Counted from the stretch's first letter, positions 11,478-44,048 are shown. The stretch is DNA of 64,000 bases from an uncultured Myxococcales bacterium (GCA_964633205.1 CAZWFN010000001.1:114219-178218), one strand, 5' to 3'. Made by a program: numbers and translations. Notes: generated by a model from the sequence alone, not told the origin.

Positions 11478-11618
11478 GCGCACTCCTTTGCTCTCCGAAT
11501 CGACCGGGCCCAATGTAGCACGAGCCGAGCGGTGCATTCCAAGGGCCCGCGGTTGAACGCCGCGGCTGGCCGTGGCAAATTGCCCCCAGGTCGGGGGTGG
11601 CGCAGACCGAGGGCGAGG

Positions 11619-13169
11619 ATGAGGATCGAGACCCAGGTGGTGGTCATCGGCGGTGGCTTGACCGGCGCGGGCATCCTGCGCGATCTGGCGCTGCGCGGCG
11701 TGGATGCGGTGCTGCTCGAGCGCCGCGACTTCAACGCCGGCGCCTCGGGCGCCAACCACGGTCTGCTGCACTCGGGTGGCCGCTACCTGGTGACCGATCC
11801 CGACTCGGCCGCCGAGTGCGTTCGGGAAAACGCCGTGCTCAAGCGCGTCGCCGCCGGCTGCGTCGAGGACACCGGCGGTCTGTTCGTGGCGCTGGACGAG
11901 GACGACGAGTCCTACGCCGCCGATTTTCTGGCGGCTGCCGAGCGCGTCGGTCTGGCCGCCGCGCCGATTGCCACCAGCGAGGCGCTGGAGGTCGAGCCCT
12001 TGCTCAACCCGGCCATCCGGGCCGCCATCCGGGTACCGGATGCCGCCATCAACCCCTTCATGGCCACCGCCCGCAACCTGCAAGCCGCCCGGGCCCTGGG
12101 CGCCCGGGTGCTGTTGCACACCCAGGTCATCGGCATGCAGCGCGAGGGCGGGCGCATCGTGCGGGTCGATGCCATCCACAACCCCAGCGGCGATGTGGTG
12201 GAGGTGCATGCCGCTCAGGTGGTCAGCGCGGCCGGGCCCTGGGTAGACCAGGTCGGAGCGCTGGCCGGCGCCGAACTGGACATCGCCTACTCCAAGGGCA
12301 GCCTGCTGATCACCAACACCCGCCTGGTCGACCGGGTCCTCAACCGACTCCGGCCACCGGCCGACGGCGATATCGTGGTCCCGGGCGAGACCGTCACCAT
12401 CACCGGCACCACCTCGATCCGCATCCAGAACCTGGATCACCTGACCACCCCGGCCGCCGAGGTCGATCGGCTGGTGACCGAGGCCGCCAAGCTGGTGCCC
12501 CGGATGGCGGACGTCCGCTACGTGCGGGCCTACGCCGGAGTCCGCCCCCTGGTCCAGAGCGCCGGGGCTGGGGAGGATCGCGGGCTCAGCCGCACCTTTA
12601 CCATCTTCGACCACCGCTGTGACGGCCTGGACAACTTCGCCTCCATCGCCGGCGGCAAGCTGACCACCTACCGGTTGATGGCCGAGAAGCTGACCGATCT
12701 GGTCTGCGCCCGGCTGGGAGTCGGCGTTCCCTGCCGCACGGCTGCGCTGCCGCTGCCCGGCAGCGAGGCCGGCCAGCATCTCGACGCCGCCGCCCGGCTG
12801 GCGCGCCTGCGCGCGCCGCCGCCCGGCGGGGCGGTGCTGTGCGAATGCGAGATGGTCGGCCGCGACGAGGTCACCGCCATCGTCGCCGCGCTGGAAGAGG
12901 CCGGCCACGAGATCGACCCCAACGCCATCCGCCTGCGCTCGCGGCTGGGCATGGGCGCCTGCCAGGGAGGCTTCTGCTCGATGCGCGCCATCGGCTTGCT
13001 CTACGAGCTCGGTCAGATCAAGGGCGCACAGGGCAACGACATGCTGACCGATTTTCTGGAGCGGCGCTGGTCGGGCATCAAGCCGATGCTGTGGGGCGAC
13101 CAGCTGCGCCAGGAACAGTTCCTGGAAGCCATCTACTGCGGCAGCCTGAACATCGACGGGAACCTGTGA
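11619..13169 (+). CDS. glpA: anaerobic glycerol-3-phosphate dehydrogenase subunit A
   Basis: N-terminal FAD fold VVVIGGGLTGAGILRD and a C-terminal BFD-like [2Fe-2S] domain (LCECEMV...GACQGGFC). A GAGGGCGAGG RBS precedes the ATG at 11619. Confidence 0.85.
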   Translation: MRIETQVVVIGGGLTGAGILRDLALRGVDAVLLERRDFNAGASGANHGLLHSGGRYLVTDPDSAAECVRENAVLKRVAAGCVEDTGGLFVALDEDDESYAADFLAAAERVGLAAAPIATSEALEVEPLLNPAIRAAIRVPDAAINPFMATARNLQAARALGARVLLHTQVIGMQREGGRIVRVDAIHNPSGDVVEVHAAQVVSAAGPWVDQVGALAGAELDIAYSKGSLLITNTRLVDRVLNRLRPPADGDIVVPGETVTITGTTSIRIQNLDHLTTPAAEVDRLVTEAAKLVPRMADVRYVRAYAGVRPLVQSAGAGEDRGLSRTFTIFDHRCDGLDNFASIAGGKLTTYRLMAEKLTDLVCARLGVGVPCRTAALPLPGSEAGQHLDAAARLARLRAPPPGGAVLCECEMVGRDEVTAIVAALEEAGHEIDPNAIRLRSRLGMGACQGGFCSMRAIGLLYELGQIKGAQGNDMLTDFLERRWSGIKPMLWGDQLRQEQFLEAIYCGSLNIDGNL

Positions 13170-13171
13170 CC

Positions 13172-14476
13172 ATGGCGAGCGCGTGCGATGTCCTGATCAT
13201 CGGCGGCGGCCTGACCGGTGTGGCTGCCGCCCGGCGGGCCGTGGCGGCCGGCCTGAGCACCGTGATCGCGGCCGACGGCCCGGGCAGTCTGCCGTTCACC
13301 TCCGGGGCCATCGACCTGCTGGCCGTCTACCCCACCGAGACCAAGCGCAACCGCAGCCGGCCCTGGGAGGCCTTGTCGGAGCTGATCGAGCACGAGCCCG
13401 ACCACCCCTACGGCCGGGTCGGACTGGCCGGGGTGCGCCGCAGCATCAAGGAGTTCACCGGCTACCTGGAACGCAGCCCACTGGCCTACACCGAACGCGA
13501 GGCGCAGAACAGCCATTTGATCACGGCGGCCGGCACCATCAAACCCACCTACGCCGTACCCGGCAGCATGCGGGCCAACGCGGCCGCGTTCGCGCAGCGC
13601 CTGCCCACCCTGATCCTGGGTTTTTGCGATCTGGTCGACTTCTCGCCGGAGCAGGTGGTCGGCAACCTGCGCGATCGTTGGCCGGGGCTGCGCGCCGAGC
13701 GGATCGCCCTGACGGACTGTTTCGATCGCGATCGCCGCCTGACGCCGGCCGCTCTGCTGGACGTCTTCGAGCGCCCCGCCTTCCGGGCCGCGGTGGCCGA
13801 GCGGATCCGGCCGCTGCTCGGCCAAGCCCGGTTTCTGGGCTTGCCGGCGGTGCTCGGCATCGAGGGCGTAGCCGACGTGCTGGCCGATCTGCAGCAGCGC
13901 CTCGGCGTCGAGGTGTTCGAGATCCCGCTGCTGTCGCCGTCGCCGCCCGGGATCCGGCTGGCCCGGCAGCTCGAGCGCGACCTGTTGGCCGCCGGTGTGG
14001 TCTACCGGGTCGGAGCCCCGGTCGTGCGGCTCGACAGCGCCGGCCGGCGGATCACGGCGGCGGTCCAGCAAGGCCGGGGCCGGGCCGAGGAGATCCGAGC
14101 CCGGGCGGTGGTGCTGGCCAGCGGCCGCTTCTTCGGCGGCGGTCTGCTGGCCGAGCGTGACCTGGTGCGCGAGCCGCTGCTCGACCTGCCGCTGCGGGCG
14201 CCGGCCAGCCGAGACGACTGGCACATGAACACCTTCCTGGGCGCCCCGGGCCACCCGCTCAACCGCGTCGGGATCCGGGTGGATAGGCGGCTGCGCCCGC
14301 TGGGCGCCGACGGCGATGCATTGTACGAAAACCTCTACGCCGCCGGCGCCATTCTGGCCGATCACGACTGGGTGCGGGAGAAGTCCGGCGCCGGCATCTC
14401 GGTGGCCACCGGAGTCGCTGCCGTCGACTCGTTCCTGGCCGGTGCCGGCCGCAGCGACCCGGGAGCGCGGCCATGA
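13172..14476 (+). CDS. glpB: anaerobic glycerol-3-phosphate dehydrogenase subunit B
   Basis: FAD motif CDVLIIGGGLTGVAAA. Starts 3 nt after the glpA stop. Confidence 0.8.
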   Translation: MASACDVLIIGGGLTGVAAARRAVAAGLSTVIAADGPGSLPFTSGAIDLLAVYPTETKRNRSRPWEALSELIEHEPDHPYGRVGLAGVRRSIKEFTGYLERSPLAYTEREAQNSHLITAAGTIKPTYAVPGSMRANAAAFAQRLPTLILGFCDLVDFSPEQVVGNLRDRWPGLRAERIALTDCFDRDRRLTPAALLDVFERPAFRAAVAERIRPLLGQARFLGLPAVLGIEGVADVLADLQQRLGVEVFEIPLLSPSPPGIRLARQLERDLLAAGVVYRVGAPVVRLDSAGRRITAAVQQGRGRAEEIRARAVVLASGRFFGGGLLAERDLVREPLLDLPLRAPASRDDWHMNTFLGAPGHPLNRVGIRVDRRLRPLGADGDALYENLYAAGAILADHDWVREKSGAGISVATGVAAVDSFLAGAGRSDPGARP

Positions 14477-15708
14477 GCGGACGAGACCCGCGATCGCACG
14501 CGCGCCCGGCTTCCGGCCGGCGGCCGCTGCGCCATCTGCTGTTCGCCGCCGGCGCCGATCGCTGCATCGCCTGCGGCACCTGCGCGGCCGGTTGTCCGGT
14601 GGCCGACTGGGACCAAAACCGGCTGGATCCGCGGCGGATGGTGCGCCTGATCCACTACGGCCGGGCCGACCTGTTGATCGGGCAGGACTGGCTGTTCCAG
14701 TGCACCAACTGCGGCAAATGCACCTTCAACTGCCCGGCCAAGGTCGACCTGGGCCAGATCATCAGCCAGGCCCGCGGGCTGGTGGAACGCCACCGGGATC
14801 CCGGCCCGGCCCAGATCCAGAAGACCGCCGAGTTGCACCGCGACACGGACAACAACATGGGGCTGGCCGAGGAGGACTGGCTCGAGACCGCGGAGTGGAT
14901 GGCCGAAGAGCTGGCCGACGCGATCGGCGATTTCGCGCTGCCGGTCGATCGACCCGGGGCCGAGTACTTCGCCACCTTCAACTCCAAGCTGCCGATGTAC
15001 TACCCGATCGATCTGCAGGACATCTTCAAGATCTTCACCCTGGCCGGGGTCGACTGGACCCTGCCGCGGCACTGGTGGGAAGGCACCAATTACGCCATGT
15101 TCACCCACGACGAAGCCACCTGGGCCGAGACCCTGCGCCGGCAGGTGGCCGAGGCGCAGCGGCTGGGCTGCCGCAAGATGGCCTACACCGAGTGCGGTCA
15201 CGGCTACTACGCCACCCTGAGCGGGCTGCGGCGCTTCGGCATCGAGACCGATCTCGAGGTCATCCACGTGGTCTCGCTGTATGCGCAGTGGATCCGCGAG
15301 GGCCGCTTCGAACTCGACCCCGACCGCAATCCGCAGCGCATCACCATCCACGATCCCTGCAACGCCACCCGCAAGGCGGCCCTGGACGGCTTCCCCTCGA
15401 TCGCCGACGATCTACGCTTCGTGCTCGACCACGTCTGCCGGGAGGTGGTCGAGCCCACCCCCAACCGCGAGGCCAACATCTGCTGCGGCGGCGGCGGTGG
15501 CACCCTGCTGGCCGGGTTCAAGCAGGCGCGGCTGCACTACGGCCGGCCCAAGGTCGATCAGATCGACCGCACCGGCGCCGAGCTGGTCTGCACCCCGTGC
15601 GTCAACTGCCTCGACGCCATCGAAGGCCTGGCCCGGGCCTACGAGCGCCCCTGGAGGCCCATCCACCTCTGGAAGTTGCTGGCCAGGGCCATCGTGGTGC
15701 CCAGCTGA
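14473..15708 (+). CDS. glpC: anaerobic glycerol-3-phosphate dehydrogenase subunit C (Fe-S, CCG domains)
   Basis: Two ferredoxin-type clusters (CIACGTCAAGCP, CTNCGKCTFNCP) and CCG-domain cysteines (HDPCNATR, CCGGGGG). ATGA overlap with glpB. Confidence 0.8.
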   Translation: MSGRDPRSHARPASGRRPLRHLLFAAGADRCIACGTCAAGCPVADWDQNRLDPRRMVRLIHYGRADLLIGQDWLFQCTNCGKCTFNCPAKVDLGQIISQARGLVERHRDPGPAQIQKTAELHRDTDNNMGLAEEDWLETAEWMAEELADAIGDFALPVDRPGAEYFATFNSKLPMYYPIDLQDIFKIFTLAGVDWTLPRHWWEGTNYAMFTHDEATWAETLRRQVAEAQRLGCRKMAYTECGHGYYATLSGLRRFGIETDLEVIHVVSLYAQWIREGRFELDPDRNPQRITIHDPCNATRKAALDGFPSIADDLRFVLDHVCREVVEPTPNREANICCGGGGGTLLAGFKQARLHYGRPKVDQIDRTGAELVCTPCVNCLDAIEGLARAYERPWRPIHLWKLLARAIVVPS

Positions 15709-17303
15709 ACCTGGGGCCGGGGCATCCGGTAGCTGCGTTGGGTGGACTCGGGCTGCTGGCCGATTCCGTGCTCCAGCTTGTAGCGGGTAAGCTGCATCAA
15801 GACCGGAACCACCTTGGCCTGGAGCCGCTGCTTCCAGTTCATGGGGCCGGTCTCGCGCCGGTTTCTCTCCAGCAGCCCCGCCAGCCAATCCCGCACCGGG
15901 GCGTTCAGATAGGGCAGAGCACCCGGCATCAGGACCATGGACTCGTGCGCCGTCTGGCCGTACTTCGCGGCCTTGGCCCGAATCCGTTCATTCCGATGCC
16001 CCCGCAGATTGACGTGTCCGTTCAGGTAATCCTCGACCACCCGGTAGATGGAAGGCCCCAGCCGCTCGAACTCCCGCCGGTAGAGATCGCGGTGGATGGA
16101 CAACAGCTGCTCGGGTTCCATGTGCGGGTGTGTATAGGCGGGGTAGAATCCATCCTGCTTGGAGGTGTCGTCCCTGATCTCGGGCCTGAAACGACCCGCC
16201 TCGACCAGGCGCTTGAAGCCCGGGGTACCGTGGGCCGGGCCGTAGATCAAGAACTGGCTCATGGATGGGCGCAGCCGCATCAGCTCTTCGAACTCCGCCT
16301 CGATGATCTCCGGCGTCTGGTAGTCGAAGCCGATGATCATCGAGGCCAACACGCTGATGCCGTGCTGTTGCAGATCCGCAAACAGATCGCGGTAAGAGCG
16401 GCCCCGCATCTTGTCATACCCGGCCCGTTTGCCCTCGAAGCCGACCCAGATCCAATCGATCCCCATCTCGACCAGCTCGGCGGCGCTGAACTGGGACAGG
16501 GCCTTGACGCTGGAGAAGATGCTCAACGACAGCGGCGGCAGGTCGGAGCGGCGAATGGCCGCCAGGAACTCCCGGCCGCGATTCTCGTCGAGCAGGAAGT
16601 CCTCGTCGTTGATCCAGAAGTCGACCATGTCCGGATAGCGGGACCGGAGATCCTGGATGGCCTGCAGAATCGAGCCGCCATCGGGCAACAAGCGGATGTG
16701 CTCGCGCTTGTAGTAGTGGGAGGTGGCGCAGAAATCGCATCCGTTGGGACAGCCCAGGCCGGCGATGATGTAGCCGACCTGACCCAGCACGGGCATCGAG
16801 AACACCGACTGGCGTTGGGTGATGGCCGGCTGGCGCAGGGGCCGGTCGACGGGCTCACCGAGCAGCCGGCGCATGAAGGCCACCCCTTCGCCCTGGCAGA
16901 TGTGGTCGGCATAGGGAGTCAGATCCTTGTCCATGGCCGTACCGTAACCGCCCAGGATGATCTGCGTCCCGGGCGCGTGCTCACGGATGGCCTCGACCAT
17001 GGGCACCATCTTGTGGAAGGTCGCCACCACGAAAGCGATGCCGATGTAGTCGTAGCCCTTGCGGATCTCGGCGATGAACTGCTCCATGGTCGGGTAGTGC
17101 AAGGTGGTGGTGGGGATCTGCAGGTTCTCGGCGATGAAATCGATGCCCCACTGGGTGGTGGTGGCCCGGGTGCGAAAGATGCCCTGGGCCCACATGATCT
17201 GGTGGCTGCCCTCGTAGGACGCACCGAAGCCGTCACCGTGCTCTTGGCCGAAGGGTTGGCAGACGGAGGTGAGCAGGAGCTTTTGAGAATTGGTTGCAGT
17301 CAT
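15639..17303 (-). CDS. B12-binding radical SAM protein (class B radical SAM, possible methylase)
   Basis: N-terminal cobalamin-binding-like domain, then the radical SAM cluster motif CPNGCDFC. The 3' end overlaps the glpC 3' end by 70 bp. Confidence 0.8.
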   Translation of the reverse strand: MTATNSQKLLLTSVCQPFGQEHGDGFGASYEGSHQIMWAQGIFRTRATTTQWGIDFIAENLQIPTTTLHYPTMEQFIAEIRKGYDYIGIAFVVATFHKMVPMVEAIREHAPGTQIILGGYGTAMDKDLTPYADHICQGEGVAFMRRLLGEPVDRPLRQPAITQRQSVFSMPVLGQVGYIIAGLGCPNGCDFCATSHYYKREHIRLLPDGGSILQAIQDLRSRYPDMVDFWINDEDFLLDENRGREFLAAIRRSDLPPLSLSIFSSVKALSQFSAAELVEMGIDWIWVGFEGKRAGYDKMRGRSYRDLFADLQQHGISVLASMIIGFDYQTPEIIEAEFEELMRLRPSMSQFLIYGPAHGTPGFKRLVEAGRFRPEIRDDTSKQDGFYPAYTHPHMEPEQLLSIHRDLYRREFERLGPSIYRVVEDYLNGHVNLRGHRNERIRAKAAKYGQTAHESMVLMPGALPYLNAPVRDWLAGLLERNRRETGPMNWKQRLQAKVVPVLMQLTRYKLEHGIGQQPESTQRSYRMPRPQVQLGTTMALASNFQRWMGLQGRS

Positions 17304-17466
17304 CGAAGACCTTTCCGCACAGGAATGCTGGCCTGGCTGCCGTGATTCCCCCTGTGACGAGTTGAACCGACCCGTGTCATGGTTCTGTCATACGGGCCGC
17401 GTACCATAACACGAATCCGTTCTCGACAATGGAGATTCTTGCGGTTTTCTCACCGATCGGGCTGGT

Positions 17467-17660
17467 CAGATGCGATCCGCCGGGTAGCTGCCCAGGCGCT
17501 CGGCGGTGGCCTCGTCGAGCTCGTCGACCACCTGGTCGACGTTGAAGGTTCGGCCGCAAGACTTGCAGCGCAGCGCGATGCGCCGTCAGGTGGGATGCAG
17601 CACCAGCACACCGCGGCACTTGGGGCAGGTCGGCTTGCGCTTGCGTCTTTCGGCAACCAT
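17467..17660 (-). pseudogene. small zinc-ribbon ORF (CPKC...CKSC) interrupted by an in-frame TGA
   Basis: Reverse translation: MVAERRKRKPTCPKCRGVLVLHPT-TGA-RRIALRCKSCGRTFNVDQVVDELDEATAERLGSYPADRI, then a stop. Both halves are in the same frame and lie upstream of, and on the same strand as, the radical SAM gene. Confidence 0.3.
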
Positions 17661-17773
17661 GGCCGACGAGTTTATCGTCCCGCACCGGCGCATACAAGAC
17701 CGAATGGCGGTTCTTGACCGCTTGCGGGCGGCGTGCTATCGAGCTTCGCGGTGACCCAGCGCGGGAGGCTGCC

Positions 17774-18880
17774 ATGTCCGAGACCTCTGACGAACGCATC
17801 GTCCGCGGCACCACCTGGGACGAGTTCTGCGACACCTTGAAGACCGCCGGCCAGATCATCCTCGACCCGGAGGCCCCCGACGATGCGCTCACCCGGGCCG
17901 AGGGCTTTCGCTTCCTGAGCCGGGTGGCCCGCGGCGCGCTGGAGGCCTTCGTCGAGTTCGCCGATCCGCGGGCGCCGGTGCTGTTCCGGCCGGTGCACGA
18001 GACGGTCAAGATGGGCGCCGACAATCCCGACAACCACTACCAGTGGGCACGCATCTCGGGTGAGTACGAGTACCGCATCCGCGGCCACCGCGGCACCATC
18101 CCCTACCTCGGCTTCGGCACCTATGCCGGCACCTACGGGGCGCCGGATCGTTCGGCCCAGACCGGTTACCTGGAGGCCCGGGATCTCGAGATCGACGCCG
18201 ACGGCAACTTCGACATCGCCGTCAGCCGCGAGCGGCGGCCCGGCAACTGGCTGCCCATGGAACCGGACACGGCTTCTTTGATCGTGCGCCAGACCCACCT
18301 GGACCGCGTGTCCGAGCGGCGGGCGGTGCTGACCATCGAGCGGGTCGGCGGCGATCCGCGCCCCAGCCCGGTCACCGCCGAGTCGATCGACGTCGGCCTG
18401 GGCACCGCCAGCCGGCTGGTCACCGGCGCGGCCGGCATCTTCGCCGCCTGGGCCAAGGGCTTTCGCGACCACAGCAACGAGCTGCCGCCGTTCGACGACA
18501 GCACCAGCCTGGCGGCCCACGGCGATCCCAACATCAAGTACTACCACTCCTACTGGCAGCTGGCGCCGGACCAGGCCCTGGTGATCGAGACCGAGCCGCC
18601 GGAGTGCGACTACTGGAACTTCCAGCTCAACAACCACTGGATGGAGTCGCTCGACTACCGCCACTTCCGCATCGCCATCAACAAGCACGAGGCCCGGCTC
18701 GAGCCGGATGGAACGCTGCGCATCGTGGTGGCCCACGCCGACCCCGGCCACCCCAACTGGCTCGAGACCGCCGGCCACGACAAGGGCACCATGTGCTTGC
18801 GCTGGGTGCGGGCCAGCAGCCATCCCCAACCGCGCACCCGGGTGGTGGCGCTCGACGAGCTGCGGGACGCGGAGCGATGA
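17774..18880 (+). CDS. DUF1214-like hypothetical protein
   Basis: 368-aa ORF with protein-like composition. Start MSETSDERIV chosen. Its stop overlaps the sulfotransferase ATG (ATGA). Confidence 0.5.
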   Translation: MSETSDERIVRGTTWDEFCDTLKTAGQIILDPEAPDDALTRAEGFRFLSRVARGALEAFVEFADPRAPVLFRPVHETVKMGADNPDNHYQWARISGEYEYRIRGHRGTIPYLGFGTYAGTYGAPDRSAQTGYLEARDLEIDADGNFDIAVSRERRPGNWLPMEPDTASLIVRQTHLDRVSERRAVLTIERVGGDPRPSPVTAESIDVGLGTASRLVTGAAGIFAAWAKGFRDHSNELPPFDDSTSLAAHGDPNIKYYHSYWQLAPDQALVIETEPPECDYWNFQLNNHWMESLDYRHFRIAINKHEARLEPDGTLRIVVAHADPGHPNWLETAGHDKGTMCLRWVRASSHPQPRTRVVALDELRDAER

Positions 18881-20163
18881 GCCGCGGCGCCCGCGCCACT
18901 TCCACCGACTACAGCCGACCTTACCGCCCCTGGCCGATCGCCTGGGCCAACCGGCTGGGCGGACTGCTCGAACCCTTGGGGCTGCGCGCCGACCTCGGGC
19001 CGGCCGGGCTGGTGGCCAGCGCCCGGCGGCGCACCGGCCGGCGATGGCTGGGCGACGACGGTCTCATCGAGCGACTGGCCCTGCTGGTCGATTCCATCGA
19101 GTCCGAGGCCCGGCTGCATCCGGTGGGCCGCGTCATGGCCCGCGAGAACCTGATCCGCATCCTGTCCAACCGGCTGCGCGTCGAAGCCGACATCGAGCAG
19201 CATCCCGAGATCGAGGCGCTACCGATCGAGCCGCCGGTGTTCGTGGTCGGCCTGCAGCGCAGCGGCACCACCATGCTGCACCGGCAGCTGGCCTGCGACC
19301 CGGCCTTTCGCTTTTTGGCCTCCTGGGAGGCCGTGCAACCAGCGCGGCCCGGCAAGCCGGCGGGATGGCGCCGCTTGCTGGCGCCGGCGGCCGACGGGCG
19401 CGATCCGCGGCCCGGCGACGCCGCCACCGCTCAGCGGGCGCTGGGCTACCTGGCGCCCGACTTCGCCGCCATCCATCCGGTCGAGGCCACCGAGCCCGAG
19501 GAGGACTGCCTGCTGTTCGACTACGGGCTGTGGAGCACCGTGTTCGAGGCCACCTGGCACGTGCCGTCCTACTCGGCCTGGCTCGAGCGCCAGGACCACA
19601 CGGAGGCCTACCGCGGCTATGCCCGCCTGTTGCGCTACCTGCAGTGGCAGCGGCCCGGCGGCCGCTGGGTGCTCAAGACCCCCCAGCACCTCGAGCAGTT
19701 CGACGCCCTGTTGGCTACCTTTCCAGAAGCCCGCATCCTGTGGACCCACCGCGATCCCTGCCGCACGGTGGCGTCTTTTTGCTCGATGATGGCCCACGCC
19801 TGGGGGGTGTTCTCCGATTCCGTCGATCCGCGCCGGGTGGCCGCCCACTGGGGCCGCAAGGCCCGCCGCATGGTCGCGCGAGCCCTGGACACCCGCTCGC
19901 GGGTGGGCGATGCGCGCTTTCTGGACGTGGCCTACCAGGATCTGGCGCGCCGGCCCGAGCGCGAGCTCGAGCGCATCTACCGCTTCTTGGATCTGCCCTT
20001 GACCGCTGGCGCCGCCGAGCGCATGCATGCCTGGCGCGCGCGCAACCCGCAGCACAAGCACGGACGCCACCGCTACCGGCTGGACGACTTCGGCCTCGAC
20101 CGGCGCCAGGTCGAGGCCGACTTCGCGGCCTACCGCCGGCGTTTCGACATCCCCCACGAGTGA
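18876..20163 (+). CDS. sulfotransferase-family protein
   Basis: PAPS 5'-phosphosulfate-binding loop VFVVGLQRSGTTMLHRQL and 3'-phosphate motif RDPCRTVAS. Confidence 0.75.
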
Positions 20164-20165
20164 GA

Positions 20166-21151
20166 TGGCCATGCTCCGATTCCCGCACCTCCGTCCCCGG
20201 CCGCCCCGACCCGGCCCGTTCGTCGATCTGACCGGTCGGGTGTGTTTGGTCACCGGGGCGACCTCCGGCCACGGGCTGGCCTGCGCCCGCCGACTGGCCG
20301 AGCTGGGTGCCTCGGTGGTGCTGCTGGGCCGCAATCCGGACAAATGCCGCGCCGCCCGAGACCGGATCGCAGCCGCGGTCGGCGCGGAGCCGGAGATCCT
20401 GGTCTGCGACCTGAGCGCGCGGGCCGACATCGATCGGGCCGCCGCCGAATGGCTGGAACGCGGTCGGCCGCTGCACCTGCTGTTGAACAACGCCGGCGTG
20501 GTCCGCCGCCAGCGCGAGCTGACCGCCGACGGGGCCGAGCGCACCTTCGCCGTCAACTACCTGGCCCCATTCCAGCTCACCCTGCGGCTGCTGCCCCGGC
20601 TGTGCGAAAGCGCTCCGGCACGCATCGTCAACGTGGCCTCGGATGCCCACCGGGTCGTCTCGCTGCCGATCCACGATCTCGATGCGGAACGCCGCTACAA
20701 CTTCATGCTGGCCTACTGCCACTCCAAGCTGGCCATCTTGTACTTCACCTACGAGCTGGCCCGGCGGCTGGCGGGCAGCGGAGTGACGGTCAACGCGGTC
20801 GACCCGGGTCCGGTGGCCTCCGAGATCGCCGACGACAACCCCGGGCTGACCGCGCCGCTGGCTTCCTGGCTGATCAAGCGCATTTTCCCGTCGCCCGACC
20901 GGGCGGCGGCCACCGCCATGCACCTGTGCGCTGCCGCCAATACCCAAAAGCTCAACGGCACCTACTGGCGCTTCATGGCGCCGCAGCAGCCGCGCTTCGA
21001 TCGCCGCCGGCCCTGGCTGGGCGAGACCCTTTGGCGCATCAGCGCCGAACGCACCGGCGCCGACTGGCCGGCCCCGGCAGGCTCCGCACTGCGGTCGGAC
21101 CCGGCCGGGCCCGCTGCTCCCAGTAGGGCTTCGGCTCAGCGATCGGGGTAA
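20166..21151 (+). CDS. SDR-family oxidoreductase
   Basis: TGATSGHGLA (Rossmann TGxxxGxG), NNAG, and catalytic YCHSK. Confidence 0.75.
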
Positions 21152-21948
21152 ATCCGGCGCATGGCGCGGCCCAGCCAGCGCGAGGCCAGCCCGCGCGGCA
21201 GCAGCCGATCGTTGACCAGCTGGGTCAGCCGATAGGACGCGCCGGGGATGAAGCGCGGACCCCGGCCCAGGGCGTCCAGCGCACCGGACGCCACCTGCTC
21301 CGGCCGCAGCACCAACTTCGATTGCAGCCGGCCCAACCGCGGCCCCGAGCGCTCGAATCCCGGGGTGCGGGTCATGCCGGCACAGACGGCCAGCACGTCG
21401 ACGCCGTGCGGGCCCAGCTCTTCCCACAGGGCCTCGGCCAGCAGCCAGTCGAAGGCCTTGGTGGCCCCGTAGGTGGCCACCAGTCCATGGCCGTGGGTGC
21501 CGGCCAACGAGGACATGACGATCAGCCCGCCCCGGCCGCGGCCAGCCATGGCCGCGCCGAAGTGATGGGCCAGCAGCAGCCAGCCGCGGCAGTTGACGTC
21601 CAGGGTGGCGAGCTTGTCATCGAGGGGCTGTTGCAAGAATCCCCCCACCGTCGAGCGGGCGGCGTTGTAGACCACCAGCCCCACCCCGGCATCGCCCAGC
21701 TCGGCTTCCAGGCGCTCGAGCAGGTCGGGCGCACCCAGATCGCAGACGAGCGCACGGCATTCCACCCGGTGCACAGCCCGCAGGCGGGCGGCCAAGGCGC
21801 CGCAGGCCTCGGCCTGCCGGTCCAGCAGCACCAGGCCCAGCCCGCGGCGGGCCAGCTGCTCGGCAAAGGCCGCGCCGATGCCTTCGGCCGCTCCGGCCAC
21901 CAGGGCCAGCGGCCCGTAGCGCTGGAAAAAAGGCTTGCCGTCGCCCAT
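21136..21948 (-). CDS. SDR-family oxidoreductase
   Basis: VAGAAEGIGAAFA, NAAR, YGATK. Start taken at the internal Met (MGDGKPFF). Convergent overlap of 16 bp with the preceding SDR. Confidence 0.7.
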   Translation of the reverse strand: MGDGKPFFQRYGPLALVAGAAEGIGAAFAEQLARRGLGLVLLDRQAEACGALAARLRAVHRVECRALVCDLGAPDLLERLEAELGDAGVGLVVYNAARSTVGGFLQQPLDDKLATLDVNCRGWLLLAHHFGAAMAGRGRGGLIVMSSLAGTHGHGLVATYGATKAFDWLLAEALWEELGPHGVDVLAVCAGMTRTPGFERSGPRLGRLQSKLVLRPEQVASGALDALGRGPRFIPGASYRLTQLVNDRLLPRGLASRWLGRAMRRIYPDR

Positions 21949-22184
21949 CGCGACCTCCGCCGGCAATCTACCATCCCCGCTGCCGGGCACAAGAACCTGT
22001 AACCGTTCAGGGCTTCATGAGGGCATCGCGCCTCAGCCCGTCTGGACTGCGTCAGCTCTGTCGGCCCGATGCTCACGACCCTTAGGTCGCTGCGCTGCGG
22101 GCCTCGTCGCTTCCTTGCCAGACGGGCTGATCCGCGATGCGAGGCGATTCGGGACGTCTGGAGCCTGAACGGGCACAAGAACCT

Positions 22185-22211
22185 TTGCACGGCGGGCGCA
22201 ATCGATATAAT
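22185..22211 (+). promoter_or_regulatory. sigma-70-like promoter candidate (TTGCAC-15-TATAAT) upstream of the 3beta-HSD-family gene
   Basis: TTGCAC at 22185-22190 and TATAAT at 22206-22211. An AAAAAGGAG RBS precedes the ATG at 22260. A GGGCACAAGAACCT motif abuts the -35 element. Confidence 0.35.
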
Positions 22212-22259
22212 TCGTCCGCAGCCAGAACTGGTCACAAGCAGCTGGAAAAAGGAGCGGGC

Positions 22260-23348
22260 ATGACGAGTGGCGGGCCACAGTTCGATTCGCCGGTCAGGGT
22301 GCTGATCACCGGCGGCGCGGGATTTCTCGGCCGGGCGCTGGTGCGCGAGCTGACCGCGCCGCGCGGCGAGCCGGTCTTGCGGGCTGCACACATTCGGCTG
22401 TTCGACCGGGCGGTGCCCGATCACGGATCCGACGAGGTGGAATTCGTCCGCGGTGACATCCGCGATGGCGCCGCGCTCGAACGGGCCTGCCAGGACACGG
22501 ACGTGGTATTTCACACCGCCGCCCTGGTCTCCTGGGGCCAACACCCGGACACGCTGGTCCACGAAGTCAACGTGGGCGGCACCCGGCGCGTCATCGAGGC
22601 CTGCGGCCGCGCCGGAGTTGCGGCGCTGGTGCACACCTCGACGCTGGACGTGGTCTACGACGGCCGCCCGGTGCGCGAAGGCGACGAGCGGCTGCCCTAC
22701 CCGCGCCGTTACTACAACGCCTACGCCGAGACCAAGGCCTTGTCCGAGCAGGCGGCGCTGGCCGCCGACGGCAGCCGGCATGCCGACGGCGCGGGCCGGC
22801 TGCGCAGCTGCGCCCTGCGCCCCTGCGGCATGTGGGGCGAGCGCGATCCGTTCCACATCAGCAACCTGTTGCAGATGGCCCGTGCCGGCAAGTTGCTCTT
22901 TCGCATGGGCAACGGCCGGGCCCGTTTCCAGCACGTCTACGTCGGCAACGTGGCCCACGCCCACCTGCTGGCCGCCCGCTCCTTGCTGGCCGCTGGTGCG
23001 GCCTGCGGCCAGGTCTACCTGATCACCGACTTTCCGCCATCCAACTTCTTCAGCTACTACGCGCCGATCCTCGAAGCCCTGGGCCACCCGCTGCCGCCGG
23101 CCTGGCGCAGCCTGCCCTATCCGCTGATGCTCGGCGTGGCCGGTGCGCTCGAAGGGGTCCAGTGGCTGAGCCGTCCCTTCTTCCGCTTCGCCCCGACCGT
23201 CAACCGCTTCGCGGTCAAGCAGGTCTGCCAGGAGTTCACCTTCTCGGGTGCCAAGGCCGGACGCGATTTGGACTACCGGCCGGTCTACCCGGAGGCCGAG
23301 GCCATCGAGCGCACCATCGACGACTTCCGCCGCTGCGGCCCGGTCTGA
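22260..23348 (+). CDS. 3-beta-hydroxysteroid dehydrogenase/isomerase-family NAD(P)-dependent epimerase/dehydratase
   Basis: LITGGAGFLG Rossmann motif, catalytic YAETK, and the 3beta-HSD-like C-terminal region. Confidence 0.8.
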   Translation: MTSGGPQFDSPVRVLITGGAGFLGRALVRELTAPRGEPVLRAAHIRLFDRAVPDHGSDEVEFVRGDIRDGAALERACQDTDVVFHTAALVSWGQHPDTLVHEVNVGGTRRVIEACGRAGVAALVHTSTLDVVYDGRPVREGDERLPYPRRYYNAYAETKALSEQAALAADGSRHADGAGRLRSCALRPCGMWGERDPFHISNLLQMARAGKLLFRMGNGRARFQHVYVGNVAHAHLLAARSLLAAGAACGQVYLITDFPPSNFFSYYAPILEALGHPLPPAWRSLPYPLMLGVAGALEGVQWLSRPFFRFAPTVNRFAVKQVCQEFTFSGAKAGRDLDYRPVYPEAEAIERTIDDFRRCGPV

Positions 23349-23362
23349 GACGTTCAGCGACC

Positions 23363-24235
23363 ATGGCTCTGCCCGAATCGCGCTTCGTCGCCTCCTTCGA
23401 TGGCGCCCCGATCGCTTACCGCAGCTACGGCTCCGGCCAGCCCACCGTGCTGCTGTCGAACGGCATCGGCTGCAACCAGGCCTATGTCGATCACGCCATT
23501 CGGGCGCTGGCCGCCCAGACCCGGGTGGTGATCTGGGATTACCGGGGCCACCTGGACTCGGCCGCCGTGGACGATCCGCGCGCGTTGACCGTGGAGACCT
23601 GCCTGCGCGACATGCACGCGGTAACGGCAGCGCTGGGCGACGGGCCGCTGGTGCTGGCCGGCTTCTCCATGGGGGTGCAGCTGTCGCTGGAGTACTTGCA
23701 CCGCCATCCGCGGCGGGTGCACGGACTCATCGCCTTGCTGGGCACCTACGAATACCCGCTGCGGTCGTTTTTCCACATGGGCCGCGCCGGCGAGGCCATC
23801 GTGCCGGGCACGCTGGCCGCAGCCCGCCGCTGGCCGCGTGCGGCCCGCCGGGTCTGGCGGTCGGTGCTCGGGGGCGGCTGGGTCTTTCCGCTGGCCAAGC
23901 TGCTGGTGCTCAACCCGGCCGCGGCCGGCCGGGACGACTTCGAGTCCTGGCGCCGCCACCTGGCCGGCGTGGATCCGCTGGTCTTTCTACAGCTCGGGGT
24001 CTATCTCAGCGCCCACTCGGCCGCCCACGGCCTGGAGCGGCTGGCCGGCCTGCCCTGCCTGGTGGTGGCCGGCGACCGCGACAACTTCACCCCGCTGGCC
24101 GTCTGCCGCAAGCTGCACCAGCGGGCGCCGGGTTCGGAGTGGTTCGTCATCCCCGGCGGCAGCCACGGCGGCCTGTTCGAATTCCCCGACGTGGTCGGGC
24201 CCCGCTTGCAGGCCTTCTGGCGCGAGCACTTCTGA
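23363..24235 (+). CDS. alpha/beta-fold hydrolase
   Basis: GFSMG nucleophile elbow and a downstream Asp/His region (GDRD...GGSHGG). Confidence 0.7.
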   Translation: MALPESRFVASFDGAPIAYRSYGSGQPTVLLSNGIGCNQAYVDHAIRALAAQTRVVIWDYRGHLDSAAVDDPRALTVETCLRDMHAVTAALGDGPLVLAGFSMGVQLSLEYLHRHPRRVHGLIALLGTYEYPLRSFFHMGRAGEAIVPGTLAAARRWPRAARRVWRSVLGGGWVFPLAKLLVLNPAAAGRDDFESWRRHLAGVDPLVFLQLGVYLSAHSAAHGLERLAGLPCLVVAGDRDNFTPLAVCRKLHQRAPGSEWFVIPGGSHGGLFEFPDVVGPRLQAFWREHF

Positions 24236-24263: not shown

Positions 24264-24710
24264 TCAGGGAAGCAAGCCGGGCGTCAGGCTATCGATCGTC
24301 TCACGCTCGACGCCCGGGCTGAGGCGCTGGTGCAACAGGCGCCAGATCCAGCGCCGCATGCCGGCCGGAGCGCGCTCCAGCAGGTACAACAGCTTACGCT
24401 GGGCCTTGGCCACCGGCAGCGCCCCGCTGCGCAGGTCATCGAGCACCCGCTCCAGCACCCGCCAGGCCATCATCCACTCGATACCGGCGTCCTGGCGCTC
24501 GAAGGTCTCCAGCGGCGGCAGCGCCCAGGGGTAGCGGTAGGCCGGGTCGAAAGTCCACATCAGCCAGCGCTCCAGCAAGGGCCCGGCGGGTCCGTTCAGC
24601 AACCGCCGCAGCACGAAACGCTTGCCGGCCGTGGTCTGGCCCCGGTCGAGCAGCTCCAGCCCGGCGAACAACTCCTGCAGCCTCTCGGTGCTCAGCTCCA
24701 GCGGCGCCAT
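24264..24710 (-). CDS. hypothetical protein
   Basis: 148-aa ORF with balanced composition. No recognisable motif. Confidence 0.4.
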   Translation of the reverse strand: MAPLELSTERLQELFAGLELLDRGQTTAGKRFVLRRLLNGPAGPLLERWLMWTFDPAYRYPWALPPLETFERQDAGIEWMMAWRVLERVLDDLRSGALPVAKAQRKLLYLLERAPAGMRRWIWRLLHQRLSPGVERETIDSLTPGLLP

Positions 24711-24734: not shown

Positions 24735-25238
24735 CTAGCGGTGCCGGCGCCGCCCGGCCAGAATGTCTCCCACCAACGGCGCCTCCTCGTCCAGCACCAG
24801 CCAGAGCTTGACATCGCGCCGGCCGTCATCCGGCTCCGGGAAGCGGATCCACTGCACGATGCGCTCGATGCATTGGGCATACGCCGTTCCGGCGAAACGC
24901 GGGGTGAGCAAGCCGACCTGCCGGGCCTTGCCGGCCGAGTCGATCTGGAAGCGGATCCCCAGCCGCTGGCCCTTGAGTTCGGGCGGGTCGATGTCCAGGG
25001 CGCGCTGGGCACAGAGCTTGAAGTTGCTGACGTGGCGCCGGGTGACCAGGTGGTCCGGACCGGCTCGCTCCTGCCCGTGCTGGGACTCGATCCGCACCGG
25101 CTCGGCGCTGAAATCGTTGCTACGCAGCTCCTGCTTGCTACAACCCGCACCGGTCGTCAACAGCAGTCCCGCGATCAGCAGCACTCCGCCGCAGGATCCG
25201 CAAGCCAGAAAGCGACCGGCTGGTTGTTCCCGGTTCAT
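24735..25238 (-). CDS. lipoprotein with AgmX/PglI-C-terminal (TonB-C-like) domain, paralog 1
   Basis: Lipobox LLLTTGAGCS. C-terminal domain RHVSNFKLCAQR...GQRLGIRFQI...AQCIERIVQWIRFPEP, clearly paralogous to the next gene. Confidence 0.55.
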   Translation of the reverse strand: MNREQPAGRFLACGSCGGVLLIAGLLLTTGAGCSKQELRSNDFSAEPVRIESQHGQERAGPDHLVTRRHVSNFKLCAQRALDIDPPELKGQRLGIRFQIDSAGKARQVGLLTPRFAGTAYAQCIERIVQWIRFPEPDDGRRDVKLWLVLDEEAPLVGDILAGRRRHR

Positions 25239-27718: not shown

Positions 27719-28447
27719 ATGAATGCGAATGTCGGCACTGGAGCCCTGGGAACGACGCTGTTGTTGGGCGCCCTGGCGGCCGCACTGGTCGGCGGCTGTG
27801 GGGTCGAGGCCACCCTGCGCCACCACCGGGTATCGCTCGAGCTGGCCGTCGCGGGTGAGGCCGAGCTGGCCCTGGCGGTCCACGACCAGCGGCCCTACGT
27901 GCGCTCGGAGGAAAAGATCCCGGCCTACGTGGGCTCGGTGCGCAAGGCGGGCATACCCTACGACGCCCACACCGCCAGCGGCCGGCCGTTGGCCGCCGAC
28001 ATGGCCCGGGTGGTCGAGCTGGCGCTGGTGAAGCGGGGCTTTTCTATCCGCCGCATCGACAGCCAGCCGGCGCAGATCGAGATCGAGGTGGTCAAGCGCT
28101 TGGTCGCCAACGGTGGCGGACGTTCGCTGCTACTGGTCATCCGCGATTGGCACGCCGACGTTCGTTCCGAACAGACGCTGCTGAAGTATGACCTGGGGCT
28201 GAAGGTCATCAACGCCTACCGGTCGGTGATGGCCGAGACCAACCTGCGCGGCGAGCAGGAGCTGCCGGGCCGGCCCGGCATCGCCCTGCCCCAGGCCTAT
28301 CGCGAAAAGCTCGAGGCCCTGCTCAATGCGCCGGCGGTGGTCGCCGCCCTGTCCGCTCCGCCGCCGAAAAAACCCGCGGCTGAGCGCGAGGAAAAGACGC
28401 CGGCCGCCGAGCCGGCCGGCCCGGAGCCGTCGGAGGCCGCCGAATGA
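27719..28447 (+). CDS. hypothetical lipoprotein
   Basis: Lipobox LVGGCG and a Pro/Ala/Glu-rich C-terminus. Its stop overlaps the next gene's ATG. Confidence 0.5.
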   Translation: MNANVGTGALGTTLLLGALAAALVGGCGVEATLRHHRVSLELAVAGEAELALAVHDQRPYVRSEEKIPAYVGSVRKAGIPYDAHTASGRPLAADMARVVELALVKRGFSIRRIDSQPAQIEIEVVKRLVANGGGRSLLLVIRDWHADVRSEQTLLKYDLGLKVINAYRSVMAETNLRGEQELPGRPGIALPQAYREKLEALLNAPAVVAALSAPPPKKPAAEREEKTPAAEPAGPEPSEAAE

Positions 28448-29535
28448 GGCCCACAGCGGCACTGCTGGCCGCCGTTTGCCTGGCCGGCTGCTCGGCAGCG
28501 GTCGAGCGGAAAATCGGGATCGAGGGACCGGCCGCTGTCACCACGCTGGCGCTGGTCTCGGCTCCCGCGCCGGCGCTGGAGCCCGACCGGGTTCAGGAGC
28601 TGCTGGTCGGCTTGGCCCAACGGCTGCACAAGCGCTACGACATGCCGGTGCTCGCCGGTCGCAGCCTCAACGACGCGGTCTGGGCCGGCCTCGACGACAG
28701 CGGCCCGACCGCCTGCCGCGAGCTCGAGGCCCAGCTGAAGCGCGCCCAGAAGGCGCTGGCCGAGCTGCGCGTCGGCAGCAGCCTGGAAGCGACCGCGGCC
28801 GCCGGCGAGCGCCTCGACCGCTGCGGGCCCGAGCTGGAGTCACCGGAACGGCTGATCGATCTGGCGCTGTTGCGGGCTCGCAGTCTTTTGCTGCGCGAAC
28901 GCCACGACGAGGCGATGGCGGCCTTTCGCTGGGTGGTGGCCCTCGACCCCGAACGGGTGATCGACAGCAGCGGCTTCACCCCGCGCCAGCGCGAGGCGCT
29001 GCAGACCGCCCGGCGCCAGGTGCTTTCGGCCGAGCCGGCCGCCATGCGCATCGACTCCGAGCCGCCCGGCGCCATCATCTGGATCGACGGCCGGCGCCGC
29101 GGGAGCACCCCGGACGAGACCATCCGCCTGTACCCGGGCCGCCACTTCATCCGCTTGCAGCTCGCCGGGCACGGGGCCTGGACCCGGGCCCTGCCGGACG
29201 GGGTGCCGCCGCCGCGGATCAAGGCCTGGCTCTTCCCCACGCCCGAGGGCGAAGCGCCCGCGGCGCTGCTGGCCGCCGTGCGCGAGCAGGCCCCGCTGGA
29301 TGCATCCGCCCGCAGCCAGGCCCGCACGGCCGCGTCCCGGCTGGAGGCCGACGGCCTGCTGCTGGTGCGGCTGGCCGCGACCGAGAGCGGGCTGCAGCTG
29401 GCCGGGCTGCTCTACCTGCCCGAAGCCGACGCCCACAGCGAGTGGCGCGAGTTCGAACTCGGCGCCGGCGGCCGCCAGATCGCCAAAGGCATCGGCCGGG
29501 TGGTCCGGGGATTCGGCGAGCTGCGCCGGCGCTGA
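28444..29535 (+). CDS. PEGA-domain lipoprotein
   Basis: Lipobox LAGCS. PEGA domain IDSEPPGAIIWIDGRRRGSTPDETIRLYPGRHFIRLQLAGHG. Confidence 0.6.
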   Translation: MRPTAALLAAVCLAGCSAAVERKIGIEGPAAVTTLALVSAPAPALEPDRVQELLVGLAQRLHKRYDMPVLAGRSLNDAVWAGLDDSGPTACRELEAQLKRAQKALAELRVGSSLEATAAAGERLDRCGPELESPERLIDLALLRARSLLLRERHDEAMAAFRWVVALDPERVIDSSGFTPRQREALQTARRQVLSAEPAAMRIDSEPPGAIIWIDGRRRGSTPDETIRLYPGRHFIRLQLAGHGAWTRALPDGVPPPRIKAWLFPTPEGEAPAALLAAVREQAPLDASARSQARTAASRLEADGLLLVRLAATESGLQLAGLLYLPEADAHSEWREFELGAGGRQIAKGIGRVVRGFGELRRR

Positions 29536-42784: not shown

Positions 42785-43627
42785 ATGACCGACGAGATGC
42801 TGGCGACCGGACGCGACCACTTCGCCCCGCAGGCGGCGCGTCTGGCCGGGGGAACCGCGCTGGCCTATACGGCCCGCGATCCGACCGCCGATAGGCCCAA
42901 CGAGGATGCCCTGGCCCTGCTGCCGCTCGACGACGAACGGGCCGTCATCGCCCTGGCCGACGGCGCCGGTGGAGAGCCGGGCGGCGCCGAGGCGGCGGCC
43001 CTGACGCTGCGCACCTTGCAGCAGAGCCTGCGACAAGCGCGGGCCCAGCCGCCGGCCGAGGGGCTGCGCGCGGCGATCCTGGATGCCATCGAGGCCGCCA
43101 ACCGCCAGTTGCTCAACACCCTGCCGGGTGCGTTGACCACGCTGGAGGTGGTCGAGATCGGCGCCTGGCACGTCCGCTCGTATCACATCGGCGATTCGGG
43201 GACGCTGTTGATGGGCGGGCGCGGCCGAGTCAAGTACCGCACCATCTCCCACTCCCCGGTGGGATACGCGATCGAGGCGGGGCTGGTCGAGGCTGGCGAA
43301 GCGCTGTTCCACGAGGACCTGCACCTGGTCAGCAACCTGCTCGGCACCCGCGAGATGCACATCGACATCGGCCCGCGCCTGCGGCTGTCGCCGCGTGATA
43401 CCCTGCTGGTGGCCAGCGATGGATTGGGCGACAACCTGTTGCCGCGCGAGCTGACCGAGCTGTCCCGCAAGAGTCCGTTGGAACGGGTGCGCGACCGGCT
43501 GGCCGCGCTGGGCCGCCGGCGCATGCTGGAGCCGACCGCCGGCACGCCGTCCAAACCGGACGACCTGAGCTTTGTCCTGTTCCGGCCGGACCCGGCCCGG
43601 GGGCCGGGGGCGGAAGGACGGGGGTGA
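42785..43627 (+). CDS. PP2C-family Ser/Thr protein phosphatase
   Basis: PP2C metal-binding motifs NEDA, ADGAGG, HSPVGY and ASDGLGD. Starts 5 nt after the kinase stop. Confidence 0.8.
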   Translation: MTDEMLATGRDHFAPQAARLAGGTALAYTARDPTADRPNEDALALLPLDDERAVIALADGAGGEPGGAEAAALTLRTLQQSLRQARAQPPAEGLRAAILDAIEAANRQLLNTLPGALTTLEVVEIGAWHVRSYHIGDSGTLLMGGRGRVKYRTISHSPVGYAIEAGLVEAGEALFHEDLHLVSNLLGTREMHIDIGPRLRLSPRDTLLVASDGLGDNLLPRELTELSRKSPLERVRDRLAALGRRRMLEPTAGTPSKPDDLSFVLFRPDPARGPGAEGRG

Positions 43628-43631
43628 GTCC

Positions 43632-44048
43632 ATGGGTGAATTCGAGATGCTGGAGCACGCCGCCGACGCCCGGGTCCGCTTGCGCGGCGACAGCCTCGAG
43701 GACGTCTTCGCCACGGCGGCCCGGGCCCTGGTCTGGTTGATGGTCGGAGACAGCCAGCTCGAGCGCAGCCGGTCGCGCAGCCTGGAGCTGGCGGCCGACA
43801 GCCCCACCCAGCTGCTGGTCGACTGGCTCGACGAGCTGATCTTCTTGTTCGAGACCGAAGCCTGGCTGGTGGCCGAGGCCGAGTTGGACATCCAGCCCGG
43901 CTGGCGCTTGCGGGCGGTGATCCGGGGCCAGCCCCACGACGCCCGGCGCCAGCCCATCGAGACCGTGGTCAAGGCGACCACCCACCACCGCCTGAGACTG
44001 GAACGCCGGGATTCGGGCTGGGAGGCCGAAGTCGTGTTCGACCTGTGA
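43632..44048 (+). CDS. archease (RtcB activator)
   Basis: MLEHAADARVRL N-terminal archease motif; length about 138 aa. Starts 4 nt after the PP2C stop. Confidence 0.8.
   Translation: MGEFEMLEHAADARVRLRGDSLEDVFATAARALVWLMVGDSQLERSRSRSLELAADSPTQLLVDWLDELIFLFETEAWLVAEAELDIQPGWRLRAVIRGQPHDARRQPIETVVKATTHHRLRLERRDSGWEAEVVFDL

Follow-up and report, generated by a model that had tools for sequence, protein, structure and literature searches.

The stretch of DNA described here covers 8.6 kb of the genome of a probable myxobacterium and carries seven genes: a gene for a radical SAM protein, a gene for a DUF1214 protein, a gene for an Stf-type sulfotransferase that uses 3'-phosphoadenosine 5'-phosphosulfate (PAPS), two genes for short-chain dehydrogenases/reductases (SDR1 and SDR2), a gene for an extended SDR of the 3beta-hydroxysteroid dehydrogenase (HSD)/NSDHL family, and a gene for an alpha/beta hydrolase (Table 1). 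The whole stretch that was analysed, 64,000 nucleotides (64 kb) long, is called the window, and all coordinates are counted from its first letter. An earlier reading made from the sequence alone (the original prediction) took the seven genes as one cluster for the tailoring of a polycyclic or other hydroxylated lipid, possibly a sterol or hopanoid. The interest of the locus lies not in such a sterol pathway, but in the conserved trio of DUF1214, sulfotransferase, and SDR genes and in the link of this trio to Stf1 of Mycobacterium tuberculosis.

Since the GC content of the window is ~70%, genes were called from GC at the third codon position (GC3) and from frame analysis, together with translation, and domains were assigned using Pfam and NCBIfam. 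By these means all seven predicted genes and their domain assignments are borne out. The DUF1214, sulfotransferase, and SDR1 genes are adjacent and co-oriented: an ATGA stop/start overlap of 4 nt, which can be read directly in the sequence, joins the first two, and after a 1-nt gap SDR1 starts 1 nt past the stop codon of the sulfotransferase gene. SDR1 and SDR2 are convergent, and their 3' ends overlap by 16 nt. The hydrolase gene starts 14 nt downstream of the HSD gene, and the two are probably co-transcribed in this organism. As judged from this arrangement, the seven genes would form at least four transcription units on both strands rather than one operon: the radical SAM gene, DUF1214-sulfotransferase-SDR1, SDR2, and HSD-hydrolase.

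At the promoter-like site that precedes the HSD gene, 10 of the 12 positions agree with the consensus. The site is known from this agreement only, and it is the sole such site in 10.5 kb, where 0.6 would be expected by chance. The divergent region between the radical SAM and DUF1214 genes contains no Rfam match, no sigma-70-like site, and no KstR-like operator, and has weak palindromes only. The inverted repeats in both divergent intergenic regions are unremarkable, and no riboswitch or other RNA element was found between 11 and 27 kb of the window.

Table 1. Genes and other features of the 8.6 kb stretch (window coordinates)
Feature	Position	Strand	Length (aa)	Domains and remarks
Radical SAM gene	15639-17303	-	554	B12-binding domain; CxxxCxxC motif
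Divergent intergenic region, radical SAM gene/DUF1214 gene	17304-17773			
DUF1214 gene	17774-18880	+	368	PF06742; alternative TTG start at 17714
Stf-type PAPS sulfotransferase gene	18877-20163	+	428	Sulfotransfer_3; ATGA overlap with DUF1214 gene
SDR1	20165-21151	+	328	adh_short; classical SDR, PRK06197/retinol-dehydrogenase-like
SDR2	21136-21948	-	270	adh_short; lineage-specific accessory gene
Promoter-like site	22184-22211	+		TTTGCA-16-TATAAT; upstream of HSD gene
3beta-HSD/NSDHL-family extended SDR (HSD) gene	22260-23348	+	362	PF01073; lineage-specific accessory gene
Alpha/beta hydrolase gene	23363-24235	+	290	Abhydrolase_1

The DUF1214-sulfotransferase-SDR trio

The sulfotransferase matches Sulfotransfer_3 at 165.4 bits (cut-off 27), and its PAPS motifs, GLQRSGTT (G125-T132) and HRDP...S (H291-P294/S300), are invariant across 21 homologues. 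Its nearest solved relatives are the mycobacterial enzymes Stf1 and Stf9, and the alignments run over nearly the full length of the protein, the N-terminal helical extension included (residues 49-426 with 2z6v, 183 bits; residues 47-417 with 2zq5, 162 bits). SDR1 is recognized by adh_short (124 bits) and contains the motifs TGATSGHG, NNAG, and YCHSK. The DUF1214 protein matches PF06742 at 42.9 bits and the solved, uncharacterized structure 6ans_A at 431 bits (~57% identity); a search of the PDB with the family profile gives nothing beyond 6ANS. A family alignment contains ~30 invariant residues, many of them polar, which suggests a defined active or binding site. A single-sequence AlphaFold model of this protein is unusable (pLDDT 38), and the literature on DUF1214 function is sparse, with nothing informative found.

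A pattern scan for the sulfotransferase, taking one genome per species, recovers at least 590 relatives (590 of 600 among the matches listed). From the matches listed, 80 sulfotransferase loci were kept, each with up to 10 kb of flanking DNA, and were searched by tblastn with every window protein. The 80 loci come from more than 10 phyla, and their taxa include Myxococcota, Spirochaetota, several Gammaproteobacteria, Dadabacteria, Thermodesulfobacteriota, Chloroflexota, Acidimicrobiia, Acidobacteriota, and Rhodothermaceae. The coupling of sulfotransferase to DUF1214 that the original prediction had noticed is kept in nearly all of them: DUF1214 lies directly upstream, on the same strand, in 68 of the 70 loci that could be evaluated. 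An SDR gene lies immediately beside this module in 54 of 57, and two natural fusion proteins, P0135 and P0140, join a sulfotransferase to an SDR of the SDR1 type. An SDR therefore belongs with the DUF1214-sulfotransferase pair. SDR2, the second SDR gene of the original prediction, is present in 1 of 80 loci (L009). The radical SAM gene, the alpha/beta hydrolase gene, and glpABC-like genes were each found in 0 of the 80, and HSD-like genes in 5, only one of which exceeds 30% identity (L021, from a spirochaete, 46%).

When the open reading frames (ORFs) of these loci are clustered de novo, only the DUF1214, sulfotransferase, and SDR families are common across loci; a ~162-aa protein of the SRPBCC lipid-binding type is found in 19 loci and adenosine 5'-phosphosulfate (APS) kinase in 8. 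The commonest Pfam neighbors among 150 flanking ORFs are SRPBCC, TetR (the second commonest), APS kinase, thiolase, ATP sulfurylase, sulfate symporter, 3Beta_HSD, and KshA_C, each present in only 2-7 of the 150 (3Beta_HSD and KshA_C in 2 each). Genes for PAPS supply (APS kinase, ATP sulfurylase, and sulfate symporter, and also CysQ) adjoin the module in other taxa, and Ltp-like thiolases adjoin it in 11 Myxococcales/Polyangiales loci. DUF1214 homologues with 44-45% identity are present in Novosphingobium aromaticivorans pNL2 (L089) and on a plasmid of Sphingomonas paeninsulae (L090), in surroundings that look catabolic: TonB-dependent receptors, SDRs, a FadD3-family acyl-CoA ligase, an acyl-CoA dehydrogenase, and CysQ. 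The L090 homologue has a sulfotransferase-SDR pair at a distance of 4 kb.

In many non-myxobacterial loci the operon is longer and consists of DUF1214, the sulfotransferase, an SDR of type A, an SDR of type B, and the ~162-aa SRPBCC/Polyketide_cyc2 protein (L017, L019, L025-L027, L037-L039, L044, L062, L067, L071, L072, L075, L084, and L087). The positions concerned are about +1.4 to +3.8 kb, counted from the start of the sulfotransferase, and SDR1 of the window is a third SDR type. OZ-series records are found among the 80 loci, as are Poriferisodalis, Porisulfidus, Tepidiformaceae, and Dadabacteria. Poriferisodalis and Porisulfidus are among the lineages that supply many of the loci and that we take to be sponge symbionts. 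The large number of sponge-symbiont loci may reflect sampling, or else a role in hosts that are rich in sulfated lipids.

A relative of the trio is also present in M. tuberculosis. The structure 2zq5 is that of M. tuberculosis STF1, the substrate of which is stated to be unknown (PMC13449962), and Stf1 is Rv3529c (PMC8882603). With the 2zq5 sequence a locus of the M. tuberculosis complex was recovered (L094), in which the order is a PPE gene followed by genes for a 375-aa protein, a 260-aa SDR, and a 384-aa sulfotransferase, with kshA and an ltp thiolase gene nearby. The window DUF1214 protein and the 375-aa protein, which corresponds to Rv3531c, are homologues (30% identity over 314 residues, E 2e-37); thus, the mycobacterial operon is a distant, reordered version of the window trio. 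Kendall et al. reported that the intergenic region between Rv3531c and Rv3532 carries a KstR operator that is bound in vitro, as part of the cholesterol-responsive KstR regulon (PMC1995591), and the kstR1 genes analysed in later work include rv3529c and rv3530c. In the window, the KstR-like operator TAGAACNNGTTCTA has no match with two or fewer mismatches, and the annotation contains no steroid-catabolic genes nearby.

Genes around the trio

SDR2 (adh_short, 104 bits) lies beside the module only in L009, L091, and L093 (54-65% identity), and the HSD gene only in L091 and L093 (67-70%) and in L021. L091 and L093 are the nearest relatives of the window locus (65-70% identity) and keep its order: DUF1214, sulfotransferase, SDR1, SDR2(-), HSD(+). 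A further locus, L092 (62-64% identity), lacks SDR2, HSD, and hydrolase genes. Relatives of the HSD gene in metagenome contigs come from one locus only. The HSD protein contains the motifs GxxGxxG (TGGAGFLG) and YxxxK (YAETK). Its predicted membership in a family with a sterol-enzyme homologue is confirmed by PF01073 (223 bits) and by the nearest solved structure, human NSDHL (6jkg, 122 bits). All of its NCBIfam matches are under the equivalog cut-offs (OleD, 179.7 bits versus 580; HpnA, 90.5 versus 368; SdmB, 66.5 versus 600). The hydrolase is recognized by Abhydrolase_1 (71 bits) and has a GFSMG nucleophile elbow; in L091 it lies 2.4 kb past the HSD gene with unrelated genes between. SDR2, the HSD gene, and the hydrolase gene are best described as lineage-specific neighbors, which may contribute redox or hydrolytic reactions within this clade alone.

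Two known arrangements were considered for these genes and rejected. An Ole-type olefin pathway would pair an OleD-like HSD with an OleB-like hydrolase; the HSD protein is far under the OleD cut-off, the hydrolase has no Ole match, and the window contains no OleA or OleC. A CurM-like sulfotransferase-thioesterase is also not indicated, as the CurM-type sulfotransferase domain (4gox) is matched at only 20 bits.

Downstream of the hydrolase gene, a 148-aa protein with no family match is encoded at 24264-24710 (-); it adjoins the hydrolase also in L091, where it is 55% identical. It is followed at 24735-25238 (-) by a 167-aa lipoprotein-like protein with the myxobacterial AgmX/PglI C-terminal domain. 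A myxo_SS_tail domain is encoded adjacent to the gene stretch; together with the GC content of ~70% and with best matches from metagenome-assembled genomes of Myxococcota, it makes it plausible that the DNA comes from a myxobacterium. A PEGA-domain protein is encoded a few kb from the module, at 28444-29535 (+), and beside the module in L091 (4973-6091) and L092 (2211-3149); this is probably lineage synteny.

The radical SAM protein contains CPNGCDFC, a CxxxCxxC motif; its Pfam matches to the B12-binding (27.4 bits, cut-off 32.1) and Radical_SAM (26.4 bits) domains are both under the gathering cut-offs. Its AlphaFold model (pLDDT 83) retrieves B12-domain radical SAM structures in Foldseek, namely TsrM, MgmA, AprD4, TokK, and CysS (identities of 12-14%, TM-scores of 0.4-0.5), and with TsrM, TokK, and CysS the match spans both domains. 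The matches reflect a common architecture only, one that includes non-methylases. In NCBIfam the protein reaches 41.6 bits for HpnJ (cut-off 578) and 39 bits for BchE (cut-off 481), with no equivalog, and neither family is a methylase. A tblastn comparison with annotated plasmid genes gives HpnJ, BchE, and generic radical SAM proteins at ~22% identity, and there is no sequence match in the PDB. An enzyme of the HpnP/HpnR methylase type was rejected on these results, in which the family searches lead to HpnJ, BchE, or generic proteins only and the Foldseek folds are generic. Thus, of the predicted lipid C-methylase type, the CxxxCxxC motif and the B12-domain fold stand, whereas these searches detect no specific similarity to a lipid methylase.

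The radical SAM family, to which relatives in L004-L008, L096, and L097 belong, is large and unusually well conserved. It has 2944 matches at E<=0.001, and the members listed are 59-78% identical and come from metagenome-assembled genomes (MAGs) of Myxococcota, 'Deltaproteobacteria', and Acidobacteriota. A 99% identical copy is present on metagenome contigs of the same organism, and the other relatives are mostly from Myxococcota MAGs. In 6 of 6 independent and unrelated contexts, none of the other six genes is found near the relative. Genes for hopanoid or sterol biosynthesis are likewise not found, either across the 64 kb window or, in six relatives, at distances of up to 7-10 kb. In 4 of the 6, an OmpR-type pair of genes, one for a HisKA histidine kinase and one for a response regulator, is no more than a few kb away. 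Genes for extended SDRs 3-8 kb away in L007 and L097 were considered as counterparts of the HSD gene and rejected; they are only 25-28% identical to it, a generic level of resemblance. The gene for the radical SAM protein stands alone, represents an orphan family, and is unrelated to its neighbors and outside the conserved module.

On the other side of the radical SAM gene, positions 11532-15708 (+) contain a GlpA/GlpB/GlpC-like anaerobic glycerol-3-phosphate dehydrogenase operon. Its glpC gene and the radical SAM gene are convergent, and the 3' end of glpC overlaps the radical SAM gene by 70 nt, in a 3' tail that is not conserved. Farther away, an archease-RtcB RNA-ligase pair is encoded at 43572-45525 (+), directly followed by a ZnuA/ZnuC/ZnuB-type metal ABC transporter at 45553-48160 (+).

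What the trio may do

On balance, we lean toward reading the 8.6 kb stretch as a juxtaposition of separate units, in which the real unit is DUF1214-sulfotransferase-SDR and handles a hydroxylated, lipophilic small molecule. From the observed gene content, coupling, and conservation, we infer a substrate class and an order of steps. The SDR would interconvert the carbonyl and the alcohol of the substrate, the sulfotransferase would move sulfate from PAPS onto that hydroxyl, and the DUF1214 protein, a cytoplasmic protein with many invariant polar residues, would contribute a third step, either of binding or of catalysis. The genes for the radical SAM protein and the hydrolase are best treated as neighbors by chance, and SDR2 and the HSD gene may extend the pathway in this clade only.

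A lipophilic substrate with a hydroxyl group is suggested by what related sulfotransferases take or bind. Stf3 sulfates omega-hydroxy-menaquinone, an omega-hydroxylated polyprenyl quinone, to give sulfomenaquinone, and the Stf9 crystal is said to contain palmitate. The same class of substrate is suggested by the recurring SRPBCC partner, by the PAPS-supply genes that neighbor the module elsewhere, and by the control of the M. tuberculosis trio by KstR. In addition, ErSULT of Eubacterium ramulus, which has an Stf1-like fold, sulfonates 3- and 16-hydroxyhexadecanoic acid (PMC13449962). The original prediction of a sulfated, hydroxylated lipid thus keeps its hydroxylated lipid acceptor, which fits ErSULT and the place of the M. 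tuberculosis trio in the KstR regulon, and loses its sterol or hopanoid. A steroid acceptor for the trio is possible but unsupported, and nothing in the window points there specifically.

Several points weigh against the reading of the trio as a complete unit with a lipophilic substrate. The annotated 64 kb window contains no gene for PAPS synthesis. The SDR partner is not one orthologous group; it comprises at least three subtypes, ~26-35% identical to each other, and its role may therefore differ between lineages. Because SDR2 and the HSD gene are kept in L091 and L093, the unit in this clade may exceed the trio. Finally, substrates are known neither for members of this exact sulfotransferase clade nor for any DUF1214 protein, and the literature says the same of STF1 (PMC13449962).

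If the unit does exceed the trio, then the trio, SDR2, and the HSD protein (perhaps with the hydrolase, and without the radical SAM protein) would form a clade-specific pathway to a sulfated steroid-like, alicyclic, or long-chain keto/hydroxy lipid. We consider this unlikely, while giving it some weight. The gene order shared with L091 and L093 argues for it but may merely reflect close kinship. A homologue of the HSD gene stands beside the trio independently in the spirochaete locus L021, the 3Beta_HSD and KshA_C domains recur, if rarely, among the flanking ORFs, and the M. tuberculosis trio is set among cholesterol-catabolism genes; however, L092 and most other loci lack both the HSD gene and SDR2, and the HSD gene has its own promoter-like site.

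The M. tuberculosis trio, which is under the cholesterol-catabolism repressor KstR and beside kshA and ltp genes, is also consistent with a catabolic or activating role. In this case, an imported lipid or steroid would be sulfated so that its hydroxyl becomes a leaving group, or so that the compound is detoxified or can be exported, and the DUF1214 protein would process the sulfate ester, for example by elimination. The apparently catabolic surroundings of the DUF1214 homologues on the sphingomonad megaplasmids, the Ltp-like thiolases beside the module in Myxococcales/Polyangiales, and the frequency of TetR regulators as neighbors point the same way. The window itself, however, has neither catabolic neighbors nor a KstR-like operator, and to spend PAPS in catabolism would be unusual; we regard such a role as somewhat less likely again.

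It is improbable that the substrate of the sulfotransferase is not a lipid at all, but a glycan, a peptide, or a small polar metabolite, with neighbors that are coincidental. The similarity of the window enzyme to tyrosylprotein sulfotransferases, which would favor this, is weak (~22 bits), whereas adjacency to DUF1214 and SDR genes recurs across phyla far more often than chance would allow, 19 loci have an SRPBCC partner, and the closest solved relatives are Stf1 and Stf9, with the Stf1-like ErSULT taking hydroxy fatty acids.

Least probable of all, and by now largely refuted by the lack of co-conservation, is the original scheme of one seven-gene cluster, in which the radical SAM protein would C-methylate a sterol or hopanoid, the 3beta-HSD and the SDRs would oxidize it at C-3, and the sulfotransferase would sulfate it. 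All of the domain types do lie within 8.6 kb, the organism is probably a myxobacterium, and such a scheme fits NSDHL, a sterol enzyme and the nearest solved relative of the HSD protein, as well as HpnJ, which is hopanoid-associated and stands nearest to the radical SAM protein among named families; however, the relatives do not share the cluster (radical SAM and hydrolase genes in none of the 80 loci, no module gene in the six radical SAM contexts), the genes are split into four predicted transcription units on both strands, the HpnJ and BchE scores are far below cut-off, and the HSD protein is under the SdmB, OleD, and HpnA equivalog cut-offs. Since there is neither co-conservation nor, in the family and structure searches made, a specific similarity to a lipid methylase, and since no squalene or oxidosqualene cyclase gene and no hpn gene is found across the annotated 64 kb window, a linked pathway of methylation, C-3 oxidation, and sulfation is without support.

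What remains useful once the sterol/hopanoid tailoring cluster is set aside is the comparative-genomics result on the trio. An Stf-type sulfotransferase that is almost always paired with DUF1214 and an SDR offers a concrete three-gene unit for expression and assay, and DUF1214, with a solved structure (6ANS) and no function, gains its first functional context. With the window trio, a sulfotransferase family that is widespread, named before, and functionally unsolved gains a further member. A broader proposal, which we put forward tentatively and consider doubtful as it stands, is that the trio represents a widespread, uncharacterized pathway, found in more than 10 phyla that include sponge-symbiont lineages and in the M. 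tuberculosis KstR regulon, which makes or processes a sulfated lipid (for example, a steroid, isoprenoid, or hydroxy-acyl compound), with DUF1214 as a new enzyme whose substrate would be the sulfate ester or the precursor of this ester. If this is true, then the function of the trio, once worked out in a single organism, would reveal which substrate mycobacterial Stf1 uses, a question of long standing.

Comparison with known systems

In the radical SAM protein, as in the class B hopanoid C-methylases HpnP and HpnR, a B12-type Rossmann domain at the N-terminus is joined to a radical SAM core, and the sizes are similar; unlike them, it is nearest to HpnJ and BchE in family searches, and its surroundings contain no genes for hopanoids or sterols. 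Set beside OleD and beside NSDHL/ERG26 and bacterial SdmB, which act in sterol C-4 demethylation, the HSD protein clearly belongs to Pfam 3Beta_HSD, and NSDHL provides its best solved match and OleD its best NCBIfam match. However, it is far under the equivalog cut-offs, and the window contains no SdmA, OleA, or OleC partner.

ErSULT and Stf3 are, like the window enzyme, PAPS-dependent Sulfotransfer_3 enzymes; the likeness is drawn by description, Stf1 and Stf9 being the nearest solved relatives. Neither has been reported with a DUF1214 partner. The Bacteroides BT0416 locus, which carries out PAPS-dependent sulfation of cholesterol and is encoded together with PAPS-supply genes (PMC9417993), also contains a bacterial PAPS-dependent sulfotransferase and can be set beside the window enzyme by description; unlike the window, it has PAPS genes, and it has no DUF1214/SDR trio.

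The mycobacterial operon Rv3531c-Rv3530c-Rv3529c differs from the window trio in its order (DUF1214-SDR-sulfotransferase rather than DUF1214-sulfotransferase-SDR), in its SDR, which is only 26% identical, and in its KstR operator and steroid-catabolic neighbors, neither of which is present in the window. Nevertheless, it brings together the same three families in one tight operon, and its sulfotransferase is 34% identical to that of the window over the full length.

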